DNA of 64,000 nucleotides from an uncultured cyanobacterium (GTDB lineage: Bacteria > Cyanobacteriota > Cyanobacteriia > Cyanobacteriales > CAWUOF01): assembly GCA_963744145.1 (NCBI GenBank), contig CAVUSO010000001.1, forward strand, positions 6,880,001 through 6,944,000, given 5' to 3'. The translations under genes and the position numbers were made by a program. The notes below the pieces were generated by a model. It saw only the letters and a program-made list of their open reading frames with translations, ran no database searches and was not told the DNA's origin. Numbering within the stretch: the stretch's first letter is position 1; the number at the start of each line of letters is the position of its first letter. Shown in pieces: positions 15,242-38,615 of the stretch.

Positions 15242-15368
15242 TAGACAAGAAAGCCAAAATAATTAGGACAGTCAAGATGCCAAAATAATTAGGACAGTCA
15301 AGATGCCAAAATAATTAGGACAGTCAAGATGCCAAAATAATTAGGACAGTCAAGATGACTGTCCCACA
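15242..15368 (+). repeat. Partial MITE (family A) with four tandem 26-bp units
   Basis: gccaaaataattaggacagtcaagat x4 (15253-15356), preceded by tagacaagaaagc, the same left end as the element at 31299. Confidence 0.85.
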
Positions 15369-27898: not shown

Positions 27899-28021
27899 TA
27901 TACCTCTTGCAAAAGTCATGTTGATCAATTTACTGGACAGGCAAGATGCCTGTCCCACAACCAAAAAAACTTTTGTGGGACAGGCATCTTGCCTGTCCTA
28001 GTTATTTTTGCAAGAAGTCTA
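27899..28021 (-). mobile_element. MITE family A copy
   Basis: TIRs tatacctcttgcaaaa / ttttgcaagaagtcta; internal gacaggcaagatgcctgtcccac inverted pair. Confidence 0.8.
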
Positions 28022-29262: not shown

Positions 29263-29958
29263 TTAAGAATTATCCGGACTGTAACTTATGCGTAAAAGCT
29301 GATTTCCTCCTCGTTGAAACTCATAGTTAACTGGTTGGATTTCTAGCTGATAACCTTGGTTTTTCAGAGTATTGATGACAGGAATTACATAAGGAGATGG
29401 TTCACAGGAGAGATTTAAAAGTGGAAAAATTCGCACTTCCCGTGCAACTCGACAAAGTTCTGCGATCGATTGAAGATGAAATTGTTCTGAAAAGTGATCA
29501 GAATATAGAAAAAGAAAATGGGAACAGAGAGCTAAATCAAATGTACCAGTGGGAAAAGGTAAAGATGGTAATTCTGCGATCGCATAGCGTCCTGTAGATA
29601 ATCCGACAGGAAAATCTTCTAAAAATAGTCGGATGGTTTCTGTTCTACTCTCTCCCAACTCAGTCGGAGATGCAAATTCCTTCCAAATATATTGATCTAA
29701 ATTAGCAGTTAGACCATCAATAATTAAAGGATAAGTTTCTTGAAAACGCTGGAAAATTTCAGCTCCAGAAAATTGATATACCGGATCGCAGGAAATGACA
29801 TGATATCCTTGTTTAGTCATCTCGGTATTAAAGCTAGCTGGACCACCTGCACAATCAAGAATTTTTAACTTTAAATCCTCAGCATTTAAGTTAAACATTT
29901 TGATGTAAGTATTGAGCGATCGACCGAGAGGAACTACTTTTTCTAACTTTAAACCCAT
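29263..29958 (-). CDS. SAM-dependent methyltransferase
   Basis: ILDCAGGPASF, FDLALCSHFLFLYS. Confidence 0.85.
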   Translation of the reverse strand: MGLKLEKVVPLGRSLNTYIKMFNLNAEDLKLKILDCAGGPASFNTEMTKQGYHVISCDPVYQFSGAEIFQRFQETYPLIIDGLTANLDQYIWKEFASPTELGESRTETIRLFLEDFPVGLSTGRYAIAELPSLPFPTGTFDLALCSHFLFLYSDHFSEQFHLQSIAELCRVAREVRIFPLLNLSCEPSPYVIPVINTLKNQGYQLEIQPVNYEFQRGGNQLLRISYSPDNS

Positions 29959-30039
29959 TTTTTTTCACCAATATCAATTGAGCCAATGAAATGTAGTTGT
30001 AATTTAGCCAGTACAACTACATTCCTGGGAAAACTAAAG

Positions 30040-30885
30040 TTAAACTAGACACTTTTCCTTGATCTGGATTTGTCGTCCCACTGCGATCGCGATCGGTTGT
30101 AAAGTGCGTACTAAATCTACCATTTCTGATAATGACAGTGCTTGTCTAGCATCAGAAACAGACTTTTCTGGTTCAGGGTGACACTCAATCATAATTCCAT
30201 CAGCTCCAGCTGCGATCGCTGCTTTAGCTAAACCTCCCACAAGTTCACTTTTTCCAGCAGCATGGGAAGGATCGACAATAATGGGTAAATGTGTCAACTG
30301 TTTTAATGCTACTACTGCCCCTAAATCTAGGACATTACGGGTATAATTATCGAAACTACGAATACCCCTTTCACATAAAATTACATCTGGATTTCCATGA
30401 CTAAGAATATATTCTGCGGCAAAAATGAATTCTTCGATCGTCGCAGCTAATCCTCGTTTTAACATCACAGGTTTTCCTGCTTGTCCTACGGCTTTTAGTA
30501 AGTCAAAGTTTTGCATATTGCGGCTACCTATTTGTAAGATATCTGCATGAGCAACCACTGGTTCAATTTGGCTAATTGACATTACTTCCGTGATCACTGG
30601 AATATTGTAAGTATGACGAATCTGATTTAAAATTTCTAATCCTGCTACACCTAATCCTTGGAAAGAATAAGGAGATGTGCGCGGTTTGTATACACCACCT
30701 CGGATAATTTGCACTGAAGTATGAGCTAAATGACTAGCTACCTGCTCCATCTGGGTTAAATTTTCCACAGCACAAGGTCCACCAATAATCACAATATCTT
30801 GATCACCAATACTGACTTGAGAGGATATTTTGATAATGCTCTGGTGTTCTGGGTGAATTTTGCTGACAAGTTTAGCGTTTAACAT
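30040..30885 (-). CDS. aroF: DAHP synthase (type I-beta), short form without an N-terminal regulatory domain
   Basis: GGPCAVE, GGVYKPRTSPYSFQG, IGSRNMQNF, LCERGIR, DPSH; only 281 aa. Confidence 0.95.
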   Translation of the reverse strand: MLNAKLVSKIHPEHQSIIKISSQVSIGDQDIVIIGGPCAVENLTQMEQVASHLAHTSVQIIRGGVYKPRTSPYSFQGLGVAGLEILNQIRHTYNIPVITEVMSISQIEPVVAHADILQIGSRNMQNFDLLKAVGQAGKPVMLKRGLAATIEEFIFAAEYILSHGNPDVILCERGIRSFDNYTRNVLDLGAVVALKQLTHLPIIVDPSHAAGKSELVGGLAKAAIAAGADGIMIECHPEPEKSVSDARQALSLSEMVDLVRTLQPIAIAVGRQIQIKEKCLV

Positions 30886-30917
30886 TTGGTACTCCGATGG
30901 AAAGTAATATGGTTAAT

Positions 30918-30949
30918 AAAAAAGCCCAGAACTTTAAAAGTTCCGGGCT
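30918..30949 (-). terminator. Attenuator terminator 2 (proximal to aroF)
   Basis: Minus strand AGCCCGGAACTT-TTA-AAGTTCTGGGCT followed by a T-run. Confidence 0.85.
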
Positions 30950-30975
30950 GAGGTGACAAGCGACATAGCAATTAC

Positions 30976-31041
30976 CTACCCAGAACTGTTTCTGAGCCAA
31001 TAGTAAAAGCTAAAAAACCAATGATTGAGATTTGTGGTCAT
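30976..31041 (-). CDS. Putative aromatic amino-acid leader peptide 2 (MTTNLNHWFFSFYYWLRNSSG)
   Basis: Hand-translated; 7 of 8 consecutive codons are Trp/Phe/Tyr; sits just upstream of a terminator and aroF. Confidence 0.85.
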   Translation of the reverse strand: MTTNLNHWFFSFYYWLRNSSG

Positions 31042-31071
31042 GTTCGCTCGTAGTTTTGAGGACTGTAGACT

Positions 31072-31106
31072 AAAAAACGAAAAACCGCAGAGTTGCTTCT
31101 GCGGTT
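31072..31106 (-). terminator. Attenuator terminator 1 (distal)
   Basis: Minus strand AACCGCAGA-AGCAAC-TCTGCGGTT followed by TTTCGTTTTTT. Confidence 0.85.
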
Positions 31107-31134
31107 CACTTGGGTATCCAATCCAAATCTGGAT

Positions 31135-31191
31135 TCACTCCCTGTGAACCGATCTATGCCAAAAGTAAAAGTAATAATTGCTGGTGGGCAT
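31135..31191 (-). CDS. Putative aromatic amino-acid leader peptide 1 (MPTSNYYFYFWHRSVHRE)
   Basis: Hand-translated; six consecutive Tyr/Phe/Trp codons; directly upstream of a terminator. Confidence 0.85.
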   Translation of the reverse strand: MPTSNYYFYFWHRSVHRE

Positions 31192-31237
31192 GAGCTTGTT
31201 TTTGCGGTTGAACGCTTAGTTTATCGTTAGGCTTATA

Positions 31238-31266
31238 TATATATCAAGTAATCAGGGATTTGTCAA
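31238..31266 (-). promoter_or_regulatory. Putative sigma70-type promoter for the leader-aroF transcript
   Basis: Minus strand TTGACA-17 nt-TATATA, with TG just upstream of the -10. Confidence 0.55.
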
Positions 31267-31298
31267 CTATCTAGGGAAAATTAGTCCTAAAATACCAT

Positions 31299-31424
31299 TA
31301 GACAAGAAAGCAAAAATAAATAGGACAGGCAAGATGCCTGTCCCACAAAAGTGATTTTTTCTGGTGGGACAGGCATCTTGCCTGTCAATAAATAGATCAA
31401 TAAGGACTTTTGCTTTCTTGTCTA
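31299..31424 (+). mobile_element. MITE family A, complete 126-bp copy
   Basis: Perfect 17-bp TIRs tagacaagaaagcaaaa / ttttgctttcttgtcta with TA ends; internal inverted gacaggcaagatgcctgtcccac. Confidence 0.88.
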
Positions 31425-31906
31425 TTGATGTTTGCGCGATCGCATTTTCCTGGGTTAGTCAAGTCCTGGGGATGCGATCGGCATTTCATCCAATTGGCCA
31501 AATCTGAGTAGTGGTGGCGATAGTGGCACCAAGGTTTAATCTTGAGTTTTAGTTGAGCGATCGCCATTTCACAAGGGGAAATTTAGCTGTGATCGCCAAT
31601 CACACGCCACCACCAAAACAGACCGGGAAAAACTCTAATTTTCCAGAGAAACTGCAAAATATTCAAAATCTCACCAAATATCAATCGACCTAAACGCTAT
31701 ACTGGACTTAAATAAAGGTAATTTAGCTCCTTGGATGTCCTTAAAAGAAGAAGACAAAAATGGGCGATTGTACCTGTGAATGCTTCGGTCAAATTCAAGT
31801 TTGTAATGAGTTTCATTTTGTATTTCGGGAGGATGCTGTATTGCAAGATCCCTACTTATTCAAGAACTTAAGCACAAAGTTACGAAGCGAGCAGAGTAAT
31901 AACATC

Positions 31907-32470
31907 ATGACTTCAATTCAATCTCCTCCCCAACTCTCCTTAGCAGATTTCCTAAAACTACCAGAAACTAAACCAGCAAGTGAATATATCAACGGTCAAA
32001 TCCACCAAAAACCTATGCCTAAAGGAAAACACAGCCGACTGCAAATCCGGTTAGCTACCGAAATTAATCGTGTGGGTGAACTCAATCGTTTAGCTTTTGC
32101 TTTTCCAGAGTTGCGCTGTACCTTTGGTGGACGTTCAATTGTCCCAGATATAACAGTTTTCTCCTGGGAGAGAATCCCTGTTGATGCGAATGGAGAAATC
32201 GAGAATGAATTTGAAATTCACCCAGATTGGACTATAGAAATACTGTCACCAGAACAAAGTTCAACTCGCGTCATTAACAAAATTTTATTCTGTTTGAATC
32301 AGGGAACAGAGCTAGGCTGGTTTCTCGATCCAAAAGAGCGTCTAATTATGACTTTCCAACCAGGAAAACAACCTGAAATTAAGCAAGAGCAAGATATTTT
32401 GCCAGTTTTAAGCTCTCTAACTGATTTACAGTTATCAGCTCAAGAAGTATTTAGTTGGCTAAATCTTTAA
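31907..32470 (+). CDS. Uma2 family endonuclease (copy 1 of a duplicated block)
   Basis: LPETKPASEY, PDWTIEILSP; ATG at 31907. Confidence 0.9.
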   Translation: MTSIQSPPQLSLADFLKLPETKPASEYINGQIHQKPMPKGKHSRLQIRLATEINRVGELNRLAFAFPELRCTFGGRSIVPDITVFSWERIPVDANGEIENEFEIHPDWTIEILSPEQSSTRVINKILFCLNQGTELGWFLDPKERLIMTFQPGKQPEIKQEQDILPVLSSLTDLQLSAQEVFSWLNL

Positions 32471-32739
32471 TTTAAGGGTGGTCAAATATGTTTGATATCT
32501 TCAAAAATCGGTTAGAAATAACAGGAACTCTCTGGACTGTAACGGCAATTCGGATTAGTGTGGGTCGTTCTACTGAGCCAATTGGTTCTGATTTACCCGT
32601 GATTAAAGATGCTTTGGGACATCCTTTAATTCCGGGTTCGAGTTTTAAAGGAGCTTGGCGATCGCGCTTAGAAAGTTTCCTACGTGGTATTGATTTGAGT
32701 TTAGCAGAAGATCCAGCTAATTTTAAAAGTCCAACCAGA
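32153..32739 (+). repeat. About 590-bp near-identical direct repeat (partner at 34592-35177)
   Basis: Uma2 3' part and csx7 5' part match by eye at an offset of about 2439 bp. Confidence 0.92.
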
Positions 32740-32970
32740 GCTCATCAAATCAAAACCTTAAAAGAACAGTACAAAGACGATGACTTTGCTTTGACAAAAA
32801 TAGAAGGATCTTCGCACATACAGAAGTTTAACGAAGTTCTAAAAAAACATTGGCAAAGGTGGGGAGAAATTTTGGGCAATCTCACTCTAGAAAATCGCAC
32901 TTATTTCACCCTAGATTTGCAATCAGACGCTATTTTAACGGCTACGGCGCTCGTCATCTTAAATATTTGA
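32488..32970 (+). pseudogene. Chimeric RAMP remnant: Csx7 (Cas7) N-terminus joined to a Csx10-like internal fragment
   Basis: PLIPGSSFKGAWRS RAMP motif followed by RTYFTLDLQSDAILT; no G-rich loop. Confidence 0.75.
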
Positions 32971-33004: not shown

Positions 33005-34325
33005 ATGCCTAGTATTCTGATAGTTACAGTCGGTGGTTCTCATCAACCTATTGTCACTGCTATTTGTAGCCTCAACCCCGATCGCGTCGTTTTTATTTGT
33101 TCGACTGGCAAGAAAGGTAGTGAATCACAAGTTATAGGAGATGGTACTCCCTGTGAAGTGAGGAAAGGACAAGAGCTGATTGAAAAATTGCCTAATATTC
33201 CCACACAAGCAAAGTTAGGATATCGTTTTGATGCCAATCGAGACTTAATCAAAATTCAAGAACCTGACGATCTCTCAGAATGCTATCAAAAAGCTGTATT
33301 AGGTATTCAAAATATCCAAGCAGAATTGCCTGATGCTCAAATTATGGCTGACTACACAGGTGGAACAAAAACGATGTCTGTAGCTTTAGCAATAGCTGCA
33401 CTCGATCATCGGGTTGAGTTATATCTGACTACAGCTGATCGCTCAAACATTATTAGAGTAGAAAGAGGAGAAATGACTTCACAAGCAATTGTCGCTCCTT
33501 TAGTTGTACAACGCACGATCGAGCAATTTCTACCGATAGTTTTACAGCAGTACAATTATCCAGCAGCGATCGCAGAACTCAGGCGACTTTTACCATCGAG
33601 GGAATTACCACATGAAACTAAACGAAAAATTCAAACTTTATGTACTGTTTGTTCTGGGTTTGACACTTGGGATAGATTTGAACACAAAGAAGCATTACTG
33701 TGTTTAGAATCTTACATGAGCAAATCAGAAATTCAGCCATTAGCTTTATTTCTTAAGCGCGTAATTAGTAGTCGTGGCAAGATTGATGAGAAATTTGATG
33801 CAAGTAGCGGAACCAAAGGTCATTCTTATGAAATTGTCCAAGATTCTACTACTTAACGCTGAACGACGTGCTAAACAAGAAAGATATGATGATGCAGTTG
33901 GTAGACTCTACAGAGCATTAGAACTATTAGCTCAAATTAGACTGTTAGTTACCTATGACATCAAGACAGGTGATGTGGACATTGAAAAATTACCAGAACC
34001 TTTGCGAAATGAGTATGAAAAAATGCGTTCTCCAGACAAAGGAAAAATACAATTAGCTTTGAAAAAGAGCTACGAACTTTTGGCAGAATTTCCTAACGAT
34101 CCGATAGGAAGACTTTACCAAGAAAATGCAAATCGAATTATTAATGCACTTGAAACCCGTAATAATTCATTATTTGCTCACGGATTTCAACCTATCACAG
34201 AGAGTGATTATCAAAAGGTTAGTGAAGTTTTTGTCAATTTCATTGAAACTTGTATTACTGCTGTTGTTCCAGCTAAACTAAAGTCACAGCCTCCCCAGTT
34301 TCCTACGAACTATACCCTTGAATAA
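33005..34325 (+). pseudogene. TIGR02710 / Csm6-like CARF-HEPN ribonuclease, frameshifted
   Basis: TVGGS and DYTGGTKTMS (CARF); RYDDAVGRLYRALE and RNNSLFAHG (HEPN); one extra T near 33845 splits EIVQD|LLLNAERRA. Confidence 0.88.
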
Positions 34326-34342
34326 TCCCATTAATAATTACC

Positions 34343-34909
34343 ATGATTTCATCAGTGCAATCTCCTCCCCAACTTTCTTTAGCAGATTTCCTAAAACTGC
34401 CAGAAACTAAGCCAGCTAGTGAATATATCGATGGTCAAATCTACCAAAAACCCATGCCTAAAGGTAAACATAGTTCAATCCAAAGTTTGTTAACTCCTGC
34501 TATTAATCAAGTAGGTATGCCCAAAAAGATAGCGCGTGCATTTACAGAATTACGCTGCACTTTTGGAGGTCGATCGCTCGTTCCAGACATCACAGTTTTC
34601 TCCTGGGAGAGAATCCCTGTTGATGCGAATGGAGAAATCGAGAATGAATTTGAAATTCACCCAGATTGGACTATAGAAATACTGTCACCAGAACAAAGTT
34701 CAACTCGCGTCATTAACAAAATTTTATTCTGTTTGAATCAGGGAACAGAGCTAGGCTGGTTTCTCGATCCAAAAGAGCGTCTAATTATGACTTTCCAACC
34801 AGGAAAACAACCTGAAATTAAGCAAGAGCAAGATATTTTGCCAGTTTTAAGCTCTCTAACTGATTTACAGTTATCAGCTCAAGAAGTATTTAGTTGGTTA
34901 AATCTTTGA
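34343..34909 (+). CDS. Uma2 family endonuclease (copy 2)
   Basis: C-terminal half identical in protein sequence to the 31907 copy. Confidence 0.9.
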   Translation: MISSVQSPPQLSLADFLKLPETKPASEYIDGQIYQKPMPKGKHSSIQSLLTPAINQVGMPKKIARAFTELRCTFGGRSLVPDITVFSWERIPVDANGEIENEFEIHPDWTIEILSPEQSSTRVINKILFCLNQGTELGWFLDPKERLIMTFQPGKQPEIKQEQDILPVLSSLTDLQLSAQEVFSWLNL

Positions 34910-34925
34910 TTTAAGGGGGGCAAAT

Positions 34926-35186
34926 ATGTTTGATATTTTCAAAAATCGGTTAGAAATAATAGGAACTCTCTGGACTGTAACGGCAATTCGGATTAGTGCG
35001 GGTCGTTCTACTGAGCCAATTGGTTCTGATTTACCCGTGATTAAAGATGCTTTGGGACATCCTTTAATTCCGGGTTCGAGTTTTAAAGGAGCTTGGCGAT
35101 CGCGCTTAGAAAGTTTCCTACGTGGTATTGATTTGAGTTTAGCAGAAGATCCAGCTAATTTCACAAGTCCAACCAGAACTATTTGA
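34926..35186 (+). pseudogene. Csx7 (Cas7 RAMP) N-terminal fragment
   Basis: MFDIFKNRLEI...PLIPGSSFKG; stops after 86 aa. Confidence 0.8.
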
Positions 35187-38433: not shown

Positions 38434-38615
38434 TAAACCTGACACCTGATTATACTTTTCTCAAAGTGCGATCGCCCAATCTTTAGTTAAAGAAGAGACA
38501 GATATTAATTAGTTGGGAAAAGGGGTGGATTTTGAGCAGTTGTCGATCAGGAGCAAACCTCTGGTAGGACAGGCATCTTGCCTGTCAATTACCCTGCTTT
38601 TTTCTAGTGAGGAAT

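Follow-up and report, generated by a model that had tools for sequence, protein, structure and literature searches.

The stretch of DNA analysed here, a 64,000-nucleotide piece of the genome of an uncultured cyanobacterium (contig CAVUSO010000001.1; hereafter, the window), carries on its minus strand aroF, a gene for a type I-beta 3-deoxy-D-arabino-heptulosonate 7-phosphate (DAHP) synthase, together with the leader region that precedes it. Namely, a promoter candidate is followed by a pair of short open reading frames (ORFs), both rich in codons for the aromatic amino acids Phe, Tyr and Trp, and each of these is followed in turn by a hairpin of the intrinsic-terminator type. We refer to each ORF, together with its terminator and the alternative helix (antiterminator) that competes with it, as a module, and we argue below that the two modules are quite probably two serial, working, ribosome-stalling transcription attenuators placed before aroF. 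An initial annotation, made from the letters of the sequence, had listed the promoter, leader 1, terminator 1, leader 2, terminator 2 and aroF on the minus strand. Reading the minus strand of positions 29400-31700 directly, we found all of these elements where that annotation had placed them (Table 1). The two alternative pairings that it proposed are present as well, CGGTTCAC (31151-31144) with GTGAACCG (31109-31102) in module 1 and AGTTCTGGG (30987-30979) with CCCGGAACT (30947-30939) in module 2.

Table 1. Features of the aroF leader and gene in the window (nt, nucleotides; aa, amino acids; MFE, minimum free energy).
Feature	Position	Strand	Details
Promoter candidate	31238..31266	-	-35 TTGACA (31266-31261), 17-nt spacer, -10 TATATA (31243-31238)
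Leader 1 ORF	31135..31191	-	ATG at 31191, 18 codons + TGA, peptide MPTSNYYFYFWHRSVHRE
Antiterminator 1, 5' arm	31140..31151	-	CGGTTCAC-A-GGG, made of leader-1 codons 14-17
Small hairpin capping antiterminator 1	31117..31130	-	AUCCAGAUUUGGAU, in MFE fold
Antiterminator 1, 3' arm	31102..31114	-	CCC-AA-GTGAACCG, overlaps terminator 1 5' arm
Terminator 1	31072..31107	-	GAACCGCAGA-AGCAAC-UCUGCGGUUU then UUCGUUUUUU; consensus scan
Leader 2 ORF	30976..31041	-	ATG at 31041, 21 codons + TAG, peptide MTTNLNHWFFSFYYWLRNSSG
Antiterminator 2, 5' arm	30979..30987	-	AGUUCUGGG, final three sense codons of leader 2, abutting stop
Terminator 2	30913..30949	-	AGCCCGGAACUU-UUA-AAGUUCUGGGCU then UUUUUAUU; consensus scan
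aroF	30040..30885	-	281-aa ORF, type I-beta DAHP synthase, GGAG 8 nt before ATG

The -10 hexamer of the promoter candidate is preceded by TGa, which resembles an extended -10 element, and transcription is predicted to start at approximately 31231; our promoter scan demanded T at position 6 of the -10, and for this reason the TTGACA-17-TATATA site was not listed by it. The regulatory core of leader 1 reads YYFYFW and that of leader 2 reads WFFSFYYW. The stem of terminator 1 (31107-31082) has 10 pairs and is continued by a U-rich tail, TTCGTTTTTT, that extends to 31072, and the stem of terminator 2 (30949-30923) has 12 pairs followed by TTTTTATT, with a gap of 33 nt between this terminator and the ATG of aroF. 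The 5' arm of terminator 2, CCCGGAACU (30947-30939), is at the same time the partner strand of antiterminator 2, and antiterminator 1 is present in the MFE fold of the window leader.

What kind of enzyme does this leader precede? The aroF product scores 394.9 bits against NF006421 (the match spans 69-337 of the 338 profile positions) and 358 bits against TIGR01361, and PF00793 covers residues 18-261 of its 281. Its residue 5 aligns with residue 70 of the 338-aa Thermotoga enzyme (1rzm; span 70-337), and its residue 14 with residue 9 of the 262-aa Pyrococcus enzyme (1zco; span 9-257). The product is therefore, as judged from its sequence, the catalytic core only, devoid of an N-terminal ferredoxin-like or chorismate-mutase regulatory domain. 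Core-only forms of DAHP synthase are not known to be subject to feedback inhibition. Such an enzyme provides a rationale for control at the level of the gene, and control by the leader could in this sense take the place of the missing allosteric domain. At a distance of 17 nt past the aroF stop codon lies a 12-bp hairpin (AATGTAGTTGTA ... TACAACTACATT; 30023-29990, minus strand), which has no U-tract and was not called as a terminator; its role could be that of a 3' stabiliser, or it could represent a variant of a factor-independent terminator.

As far as chance is concerned, the two leaders rank first and second in aromatic density (7/8 and 6/8) among the 749 ATG-initiated ORFs of 10-40 aa in the window, and 30 dinucleotide shuffles gave on average 0.47 ORFs per window with at least 6/8 aromatic residues. 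Three terminator-like sites are found in 1.9 kb, compared with 1.3 +/- 1.2 in the shuffles, and the 356-nt leader folds at -92 kcal/mol, compared with -75.2 +/- 5.3 kcal/mol for shuffled sequences (z = -3.16). On the strength of the window alone, the case against chance is moderate, and we regard the conservation of the whole layout in related genomes as the decisive point.

Conservation of the two modules in cyanobacteria

Related loci were collected by scanning genome contigs with the DAHP synthase as a query, and the best 80 of the 572 confirmed matches were used. To judge from the titles of their records, all 80 retained loci are cyanobacterial, coming from Nostocales-type, Oscillatoriales-type, Leptolyngbya-type and other genera, and their DAHP synthases share 67-76% identity with the window protein. 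At least 600 nt of upstream sequence is available in 76 of the 80, the exceptions being L012 and L014, with next to none, L031, with 365 nt, and L062, with 264 nt. The modules were searched for with ORF scans and nhmmer profiles, and were aligned as A1 (module 1, 75 sequences) and A2 (module 2, 79 sequences); the leader-2 ORF of L079 is longer (34 aa), and was re-anchored for A2 and omitted from the module-2 folding, spacing and codon counts.

Of the 76 loci for which 600 nt or more of upstream sequence is available, 74 contain both modules, arranged as in the window. Counted separately, the leader-1 module was found in 74 loci and the leader-2 module in 78, the order being constant throughout, and L062, which ends at a contig edge, has module 2 together with the 3' part of module 1. 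No further copies were found by nhmmer in the 64-kb window or in the flanks of the loci, the extra signals being only reverse-strand matches on the palindromic terminators and weak cross-matches between the modules. The alignment of upstream regions of other cyanobacterial aroF genes, which the initial annotation had put forward as a check, was in this way carried out, and it yielded conserved upstream ORFs with Trp, Phe and Tyr codons, along with the covarying stems described in the next section.

In L075 (positions 2030-2265) and L078, approximately 200 nt without a leader ORF or a terminator stand in the place of module 1. These two loci, both of which keep the conserved promoter block, are a natural single-gate variant that lends itself to comparison, and in L075 the block stands approximately 200 nt upstream. 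On the other side of the gene, a 231-aa methyltransferase-like ORF downstream of aroF was considered as an operon partner and rejected, as it adjoins aroF in only 1 of the 80 loci (L077). Since the downstream gene is not linked to aroF, the conserved unit consists of the promoter, the two modules and aroF.

For the promoter comparison, the 110 nt upstream of leader 1 were aligned across the loci. The consensus of this region reads GGGGTCTTGAC...TCTGTTAnnnT, and the conservation of its -35 core is 90% or higher. A score of at least 9/12 is reached by 48 sequences, in 27 of which the -10 ends 46-48 nt before the ATG of leader 1, and the TTGACA-17-TATATA site of the window lies in the same block. 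Directly 5' of the -35, a GGGGTC block is conserved in the promoter alignment, and the window has GATAGT at this place (approximately 31267-31272); the block might be a candidate protein-binding site and thereby a second layer of control in some lineages. As for translation signals, many Nostoc-type loci have AAGGAG right after the U-tract of terminator 1, 8-10 nt before the start of leader 2. The Nostoc-type consensus accordingly has a strong Shine-Dalgarno sequence for leader 2, the consensus for leader 1 has none, and the window has only GAG before leader 2.

The leader peptides typically read M..(S/N)SYFYFWFR(V/A)VHRE for leader 1 and MTYFSSWFYGFYFWPR.SSG for leader 2. In leader 1, between 70 and 74 of 75 sequences (93-99%) have an aromatic residue at each of positions -12 to -8, and in leader 2 between 68 and 78 of 78 (87-100%) have one at each of the seven core positions, with Phe, Tyr and Trp all present in 74 of 75 leader-1 copies and in 77 of 78 leader-2 copies. 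At the aromatic positions, Phe, Tyr and Trp interchange and synonymous variation occurs, with TAC used 48 times and TAT 14 times for Tyr. In other words, the observation of the initial annotation that each leader carries Tyr, Phe and Trp codons extends to the relatives, in which the cores stay aromatic through both synonymous changes and swaps between the three residues. The codons of the tails, on the other hand, are fixed at the level of nucleotides (GTT in 71/75, CAC in 67/75 and GGG in 69/78). Such a pattern is what one would expect if the core were selected for the tRNAs that it calls, and the tail for RNA pairing rather than for any function of the peptide. We also note that Phe in the leaders is nearly always encoded by TTT and not by TTC (for instance 69:2 and 63:0 at two leader-1 positions), which may reflect the general codon usage of an AT-rich genome or a selection for slow decoding.

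Pairing, spacing and folding of the leader RNA

In module 1, the end of the leader, with the consensus GGTTCACCGGG, pairs with CCCGGTGAACC, the overlap with the 5' arm of the terminator being AACC, and a small hairpin caps the helix. In module 2, pairing takes place between AGTTCCGGG, the final three sense codons, and the 5' arm of the terminator itself, CCCGGAACT. When applied to each module, RNAalifold yields only the terminators and a 5-bp hairpin, and the competing antiterminators were therefore scored explicitly. Antiterminator 1 and its capping hairpin together have 89.5% of the alignment cells paired in A1, and 11 of their 17 pairs change on both sides; the covariation score is 0.218, compared with 0.129 in shuffles (reached in 0 of 500), and slid controls are at most 55% paired. 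Taken separately, the helix (A1 columns 45-55/86-96) is 94.4% paired, with 6 of 11 pairs changing on both sides, and the equivalent of the capping hairpin is 80.3% paired, with 5 of 6 pairs doing so. This hairpin may be a pause site for RNA polymerase. Antiterminator 2 is 89.8% paired in A2, with 4 of 9 pairs changing on both sides and a score of 0.120 versus 0.094 in shuffles (0/500). For the terminators themselves, the stem of terminator 1 (75 sequences) is 93.3% paired, with 4 of 10 pairs changing on both sides and a score of 0.069 versus 0.047 (0/500), and that of terminator 2 (79 sequences) is 95.6% paired, with 4 of 9 pairs changing on both sides and a score of 0.207 versus 0.138 (0/500).

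Both antiterminator pairings proposed for the window thus recur across the alignments at these levels of pairing, and they do so with compensatory changes that can be followed in individual loci. Namely, in L015, L032 and L061 the leader CAC has become CGC and its partner GTG has become GCG, in L051, L053 and L057 GGCTCAC stands with GTGAGCC, and in L040, L068, L069, L072 and L080 the leader-2 sequence CTCCGG stands with CCGGAG in the terminator arm. The unusual conservation of the terminator stems fits a three-way constraint, in which the 5' arm pairs with the coding strand as well as with the 3' arm. As to the 5-bp hairpin, TTCAC/GTGAA, it lies across the stop codon of leader 1 (A1 columns 47-51/57-61; approximately 31149-31135 in the window) and shares TTCAC with the antiterminator arm, and in nearly all sequences TGA follows directly after the last sense codon of this leader. 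The hairpin could be a weak protector or a pause element, or it could be a side effect of the repeated GTGAA.

The spacing of these elements is nearly constant. The distance between the first base of the last core Trp codon and the antiterminator arm is 11 nt in 66 of 75 sequences for module 1 and 12 nt in 69 of 78 for module 2, which is about the 3' reach of a ribosome footprint, and the distance between the end of the arm and the stop codon is 4 nt in 71 of 75 and 0 nt in 73 of 78, respectively. In our folding calculations, a ribosome was represented by barring from pairing the bases between 15 nt upstream and 12 nt downstream of the A-site, and the fold of the nascent RNA, that is, of the transcript up to the terminator loop, was contrasted with the equilibrium fold of the full-length RNA. 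With a ribosome on the first or middle core aromatic codon, the median antiterminator probability in the nascent fold is 1.00 for module 1 and 0.88-0.89 for module 2, while with a ribosome on the stop codon it is 0 for both. In the nascent folds of the window itself, antiterminator 2 has a probability of 0.89-0.99 unless a ribosome is on the stop codon. At full-length equilibrium, the median probability of the basal pairs of terminator 1 is 0.89 with the ribosome at the stop, as opposed to 0.24-0.27 with the ribosome stalled.

Proposed mechanism and its alternatives

The following parts of an attenuator can be recognised in the sequence of both modules: a leader ORF, a cluster of codons for the products of the pathway, an intrinsic terminator before the gene, and a mutually exclusive antiterminator that can be masked by a ribosome at the stop codon. 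The central claim of the initial annotation, namely that two serial attenuators in the style of trpL and pheL precede a short-form DAHP synthase, is in this way supported by conservation, codon content, pairing and folding alike. Building on the anatomy, its conservation, the covariation of the helices, their spacing and the in silico folds, we infer that the leaders are translated and that transcription terminates in vivo in response to tRNA charging, in the following manner. A single transcription unit would run from the conserved promoter through a leader of approximately 345 nt, with its two attenuators, into aroF. In each module, the last codons of the ORF would provide one strand of the antiterminator, and the other strand would be the 5' arm of the terminator (module 2) or would overlap it (module 1). 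When the aromatic tRNAs are charged, the ribosome would reach the stop codon and cover the 3' end of the ORF, the antiterminator would be blocked, the terminator would fold and transcription would end, giving predicted products of approximately 155 nt and 310 nt. If, on the other hand, any one of the aromatic tRNAs were poorly charged, the ribosome would stall in the aromatic run, at least 11-12 nt upstream of the arm, and the freed arm would pair with the emerging 5' arm of the terminator, so that RNA polymerase would read through.

Since the modules lie in series, a full-length aroF mRNA would need read-through at both of them, and since all three residue types occur in both leaders, a shortage of any one amino acid would open both gates. 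A series layout requires of each gate that it answer every inducing signal, which is consistent with the presence of the three residue types in both leaders. One would expect a low basal level and a response steeper than that of one attenuator; the multiplicative or sharper control suggested in the initial annotation could follow from this series layout and from the three residue types in each leader. If translation of the leaders were abolished, constitutive read-through, and not super-attenuation, is what this mechanism predicts.

That said, several observations weigh against two working attenuators. The stems are highly conserved, so that their covariation is carried by a minority of sequences, and for antiterminator 2 the number of pairs that change on both sides, a weak measure, is equalled in 60 of 500 shuffles. 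As regards the layout, the mutual close relatives L075 and L078 have module 2 only, indicating that the second gate is dispensable in some lineages, and L031 likewise has module 2 only, with none of module 1 in the 365 nt available. As regards the ORFs, no obvious Shine-Dalgarno sequence precedes leader 1 in the window, 8 of 78 leader-2 ORFs and 1 of 74 leader-1 ORFs start with GTG or TTG, and in L042 and L074 a distant TTG is the sole start. A ribosome positioned on leader 1's final aromatic codon lowers the median antiterminator probability to 0.42, so that this helix is free only in part. No convincing protector helix of the trp type (1:2) was found in either module, be it in the folds or with RNAalifold, and in the absence of a ribosome the nascent RNA adopts the antiterminator, with medians of 1.00 for module 1 and 0.88 for module 2; an untranslated leader would consequently default to read-through, unlike trpL. 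What is more, the terminator of module 2 is favoured at full-length equilibrium in every ribosome state (median 0.89-0.98). This fold does not discriminate between the states and was rejected as a test of the module-2 switch, the folds of the nascent RNA being used instead. In the ribosome-constrained folding that the initial annotation had called for, the expected switch is obtained, for module 1 both in the nascent and in the equilibrium folds, and for module 2 only in the nascent folds. Since terminator 2 always wins at equilibrium, the switch of module 2 would have to be kinetic, i.e. co-transcriptional, and classical attenuators are likewise decided kinetically. Finally, the mechanism presupposes a tight coupling of transcription and translation in cyanobacteria.

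Could the same conservation be explained in some other way? One could claim that what the leaders detect, by way of the nascent peptide as in TnaC, is the free aromatic amino acids and not tRNA charging, and that, when the amino acid is abundant, the conserved tails (VHRE; WPR-SSG) arrest the ribosome at the stop codon, thereby keeping the antiterminator arm covered and enforcing termination. Indeed, strong conservation is seen at the C-terminal residues (V 72/75, H 67/75, G 71/78, P 48/78), and a ribosome held at the stop would mask the arm, which lies 0-4 nt from it. However, the conservation of the tails extends, as detailed above for GTT, CAC and GGG, to the third codon positions, and changes in the tails are accompanied by changes in their RNA partners, which means that RNA pairing accounts for the tail. 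The six to seven consecutive aromatic codons, which freely swap between Phe, Tyr and Trp, would moreover be left unexplained, and we consider peptide sensing to be very unlikely. A related question is whether just one of the modules regulates, the other being a relic of a duplication or an insulator against read-in transcription. The loci that manage with module 2 alone (L075 and L078) speak in favour of this, and the weak cross-matches of the A2 profile to module 1 (best E = 4.3e-4, L066) hint at an old duplication. A relic, on the other hand, would have decayed over the divergence covered by our loci, and the start, core, stop, antiterminator and terminator of module 1 are all kept in 74 of them, with compensatory changes of its own. 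A single regulating module thus strikes us as very unlikely.

It could also be argued that the two ORFs are independent small genes, coding for small hydrophobic proteins or belonging to small RNAs with terminators of their own, and that aroF is transcribed from its own promoter. In favour of this one can point to the strong terminator behind each ORF, to a weak promoter-like site (9/12 match, 30959-30931) that overlaps with terminator 2, and to the occurrence of module 2 on its own in L075 and L078. Yet matches of 9/12 occur at the level of chance (7 found, 4.7 +/- 2.5 expected), and the gap between terminator 2 and the ATG of aroF is only 33 nt. The link with aroF is kept in 78 of the 78 loci with upstream sequence, as opposed to the downstream gene, shared in 1 of 80, the peptides conserve aromatic character and no fixed sequence, and the covariation of the antiterminators would serve no purpose in a free-standing gene. 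In view of this, we regard independent genes as exceedingly unlikely, and retain the two serial attenuators as the reading that we prefer.

A more far-reaching version of this proposal is that the element is the first instance of ribosome-mediated attenuation in cyanobacteria, old and widespread; that it is the main control of carbon entry into the shikimate pathway; that its gates are non-redundant and form a near-digital, multiplicative switch; and that an untranslated leader is read through. All of this taken jointly is, in our view, rather doubtful, and we offer it tentatively. Under this joint version, module 1 would be best placed for Tyr and Phe, its single Trp codon and last Phe codon lying at the edge of the footprint, module 2 would contribute two Trp codons, one opening and one closing its core, and the switch formed by the two modules would open on a shortage of any one of the three amino acids.

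Related systems and biological meaning

A scan of positions 29900-31800 against Rfam 15 (E <= 10) gave no family, those of the Trp, Phe and His leaders included, at its gathering threshold. The two best relevant matches both stay below threshold. The trpB motif, a family of Firmicutes and Fusobacteria according to the part of PMC11109978 available, reaches 25.7 bits on terminator 2 (gathering score 59) and was rejected as a chance resemblance due to the terminator, and Bacteroid-trp reaches 24.9 bits (gathering score 49) over an unrelated hairpin of the opposite strand. In the full-text literature, which leaves subscription journals mostly uncovered so that an earlier report is possible, we found no cyanobacterial aromatic leader peptide or attenuator before a DAHP synthase. 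The initial annotation had known of no cyanobacterial example, and literature searching and the Rfam scan likewise gave none.

The top-scoring sub-threshold Rfam matches, to miRNA-like families, fall on a palindromic hairpin at 31320-31390, approximately 55 nt upstream of the aroF-leader promoter. This is a nested palindromic repeat, in which the 19-nt GACAGGCAAGATGCCTGTC and its complement are paired into a hairpin of approximately 65 nt. The GACAGGCAAGATGCCTGTC repeat is also found at 27936-27997, 38568-38586 and 15345-15363, with 11 strand-matches (at most 3 mismatches) as compared with 0.02 expected, and it is probably a small dispersed palindromic element. Beyond it, on the plus strand, an ORF for a putative endonuclease of the Uma2 family followed by an ORF of the RAMP family (Pfam Uma2 and RAMPs) occurs twice, at 31760-32970 and 34343-35186, with long identical stretches. 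At 160 and 86 aa, the RAMP ORFs are short and seem to be truncated, and the ORFs that lie between the two copies (33005-33856) have weak, sub-threshold matches of the Csm6/CARF type. Taken together, these features suggest a type III CRISPR-associated region that has undergone duplication or rearrangement.

How does the aroF leader compare with known attenuators? In common with enteric trpL and pheL, it combines a short ORF containing codons for the end products, an intrinsic terminator, and an exclusive antiterminator that depends on the position of the ribosome. Enteric attenuators are single, read one amino acid each and consist of four segments, the 1:2 helix of which makes an untranslated leader terminate. 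The cyanobacterial element, in contrast, has two serial modules, three amino acids in each, and no convincing 1:2 helix. The enteric leader-peptide attenuators described in the available part of PMC11802643 are those of trpL-trpEDCBA, pheL-pheA and the pheST leader. In Corynebacterium glutamicum, according to the same text, the aroR leader (Phe-Tyr-Phe) attenuates the aroF DAHP synthase operon (Neshat et al. 2014, via PMC11802643), responding to Phe limitation and not to Tyr availability. As it is described there, aroR shares with our element a mixed aromatic leader, the target step and the logic, but it is a single, actinobacterial attenuator for which that portion of the source reports no Trp codon, while the cyanobacterial element has two modules with Trp in each.

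In Acholeplasma, uORFC-13-1 is a conserved upstream ORF next to an intrinsic terminator upstream of aroF, for which sensing of the rate of Phe incorporation has been proposed (Brewer et al. 2021, PMC8632094), and its 24 representatives come, in the portion of that paper available, from Acholeplasma and environmental sequences only. It resembles the present leader in having an upstream ORF and a terminator before aroF, and differs from it, as described, in having a single module that reads Phe only. A tandem arrangement is known from the Salmonella mgtCBR leader, whose attenuators mgtM and mgtP are called 'a singular example' (Lee and Groisman 2012, PMC3641672) and are reported to answer to different signals, ATP and proline-charged tRNA, with additive effects. 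There, too, one leader contains two short ORFs, each of which controls alternative stem-loops and transcription into the coding region. Unlike what is reported for mgtCBR, the two cyanobacterial modules appear to read the same three amino acids, each with an intrinsic terminator of its own. Among cyanobacteria, Sml0012 of Synechocystis, located upstream of aroQ, has been suggested as an 'attenuator peptide' in the accessible part of a preprint (10.64898/2025.12.20.695498); we rejected it as the same element, given that it is described there as a 45-aa protein and precedes a different gene (aroQ).

The mechanism is therefore of a known kind, and its novelty lies in the tandem layout, the reading of three amino acids by both gates, the absence of a protector helix, and the finding of such an element in cyanobacteria. 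Most documented cases of leader-peptide attenuation come from proteobacteria, actinobacteria and a few further groups. The terminated RNAs of approximately 155 nt and 310 nt may already figure as unexplained 'sRNAs' (small RNAs) in maps of cyanobacterial transcriptomes, and when cyanobacteria are engineered for overproduction of shikimate-derived compounds, the leader would need to be removed or rewired. If our proposal is true, the aroF leader would be a natural two-stage attenuator in which each stage reads the same three amino acids, and as such a case for serial RNA switches sharpening a response. What is more, it would mean that cyanobacteria couple translation to the termination of transcription closely enough for gene regulation, and it would account for the way in which a DAHP synthase lacking a regulatory domain is kept in line with the supply of aromatic amino acids.

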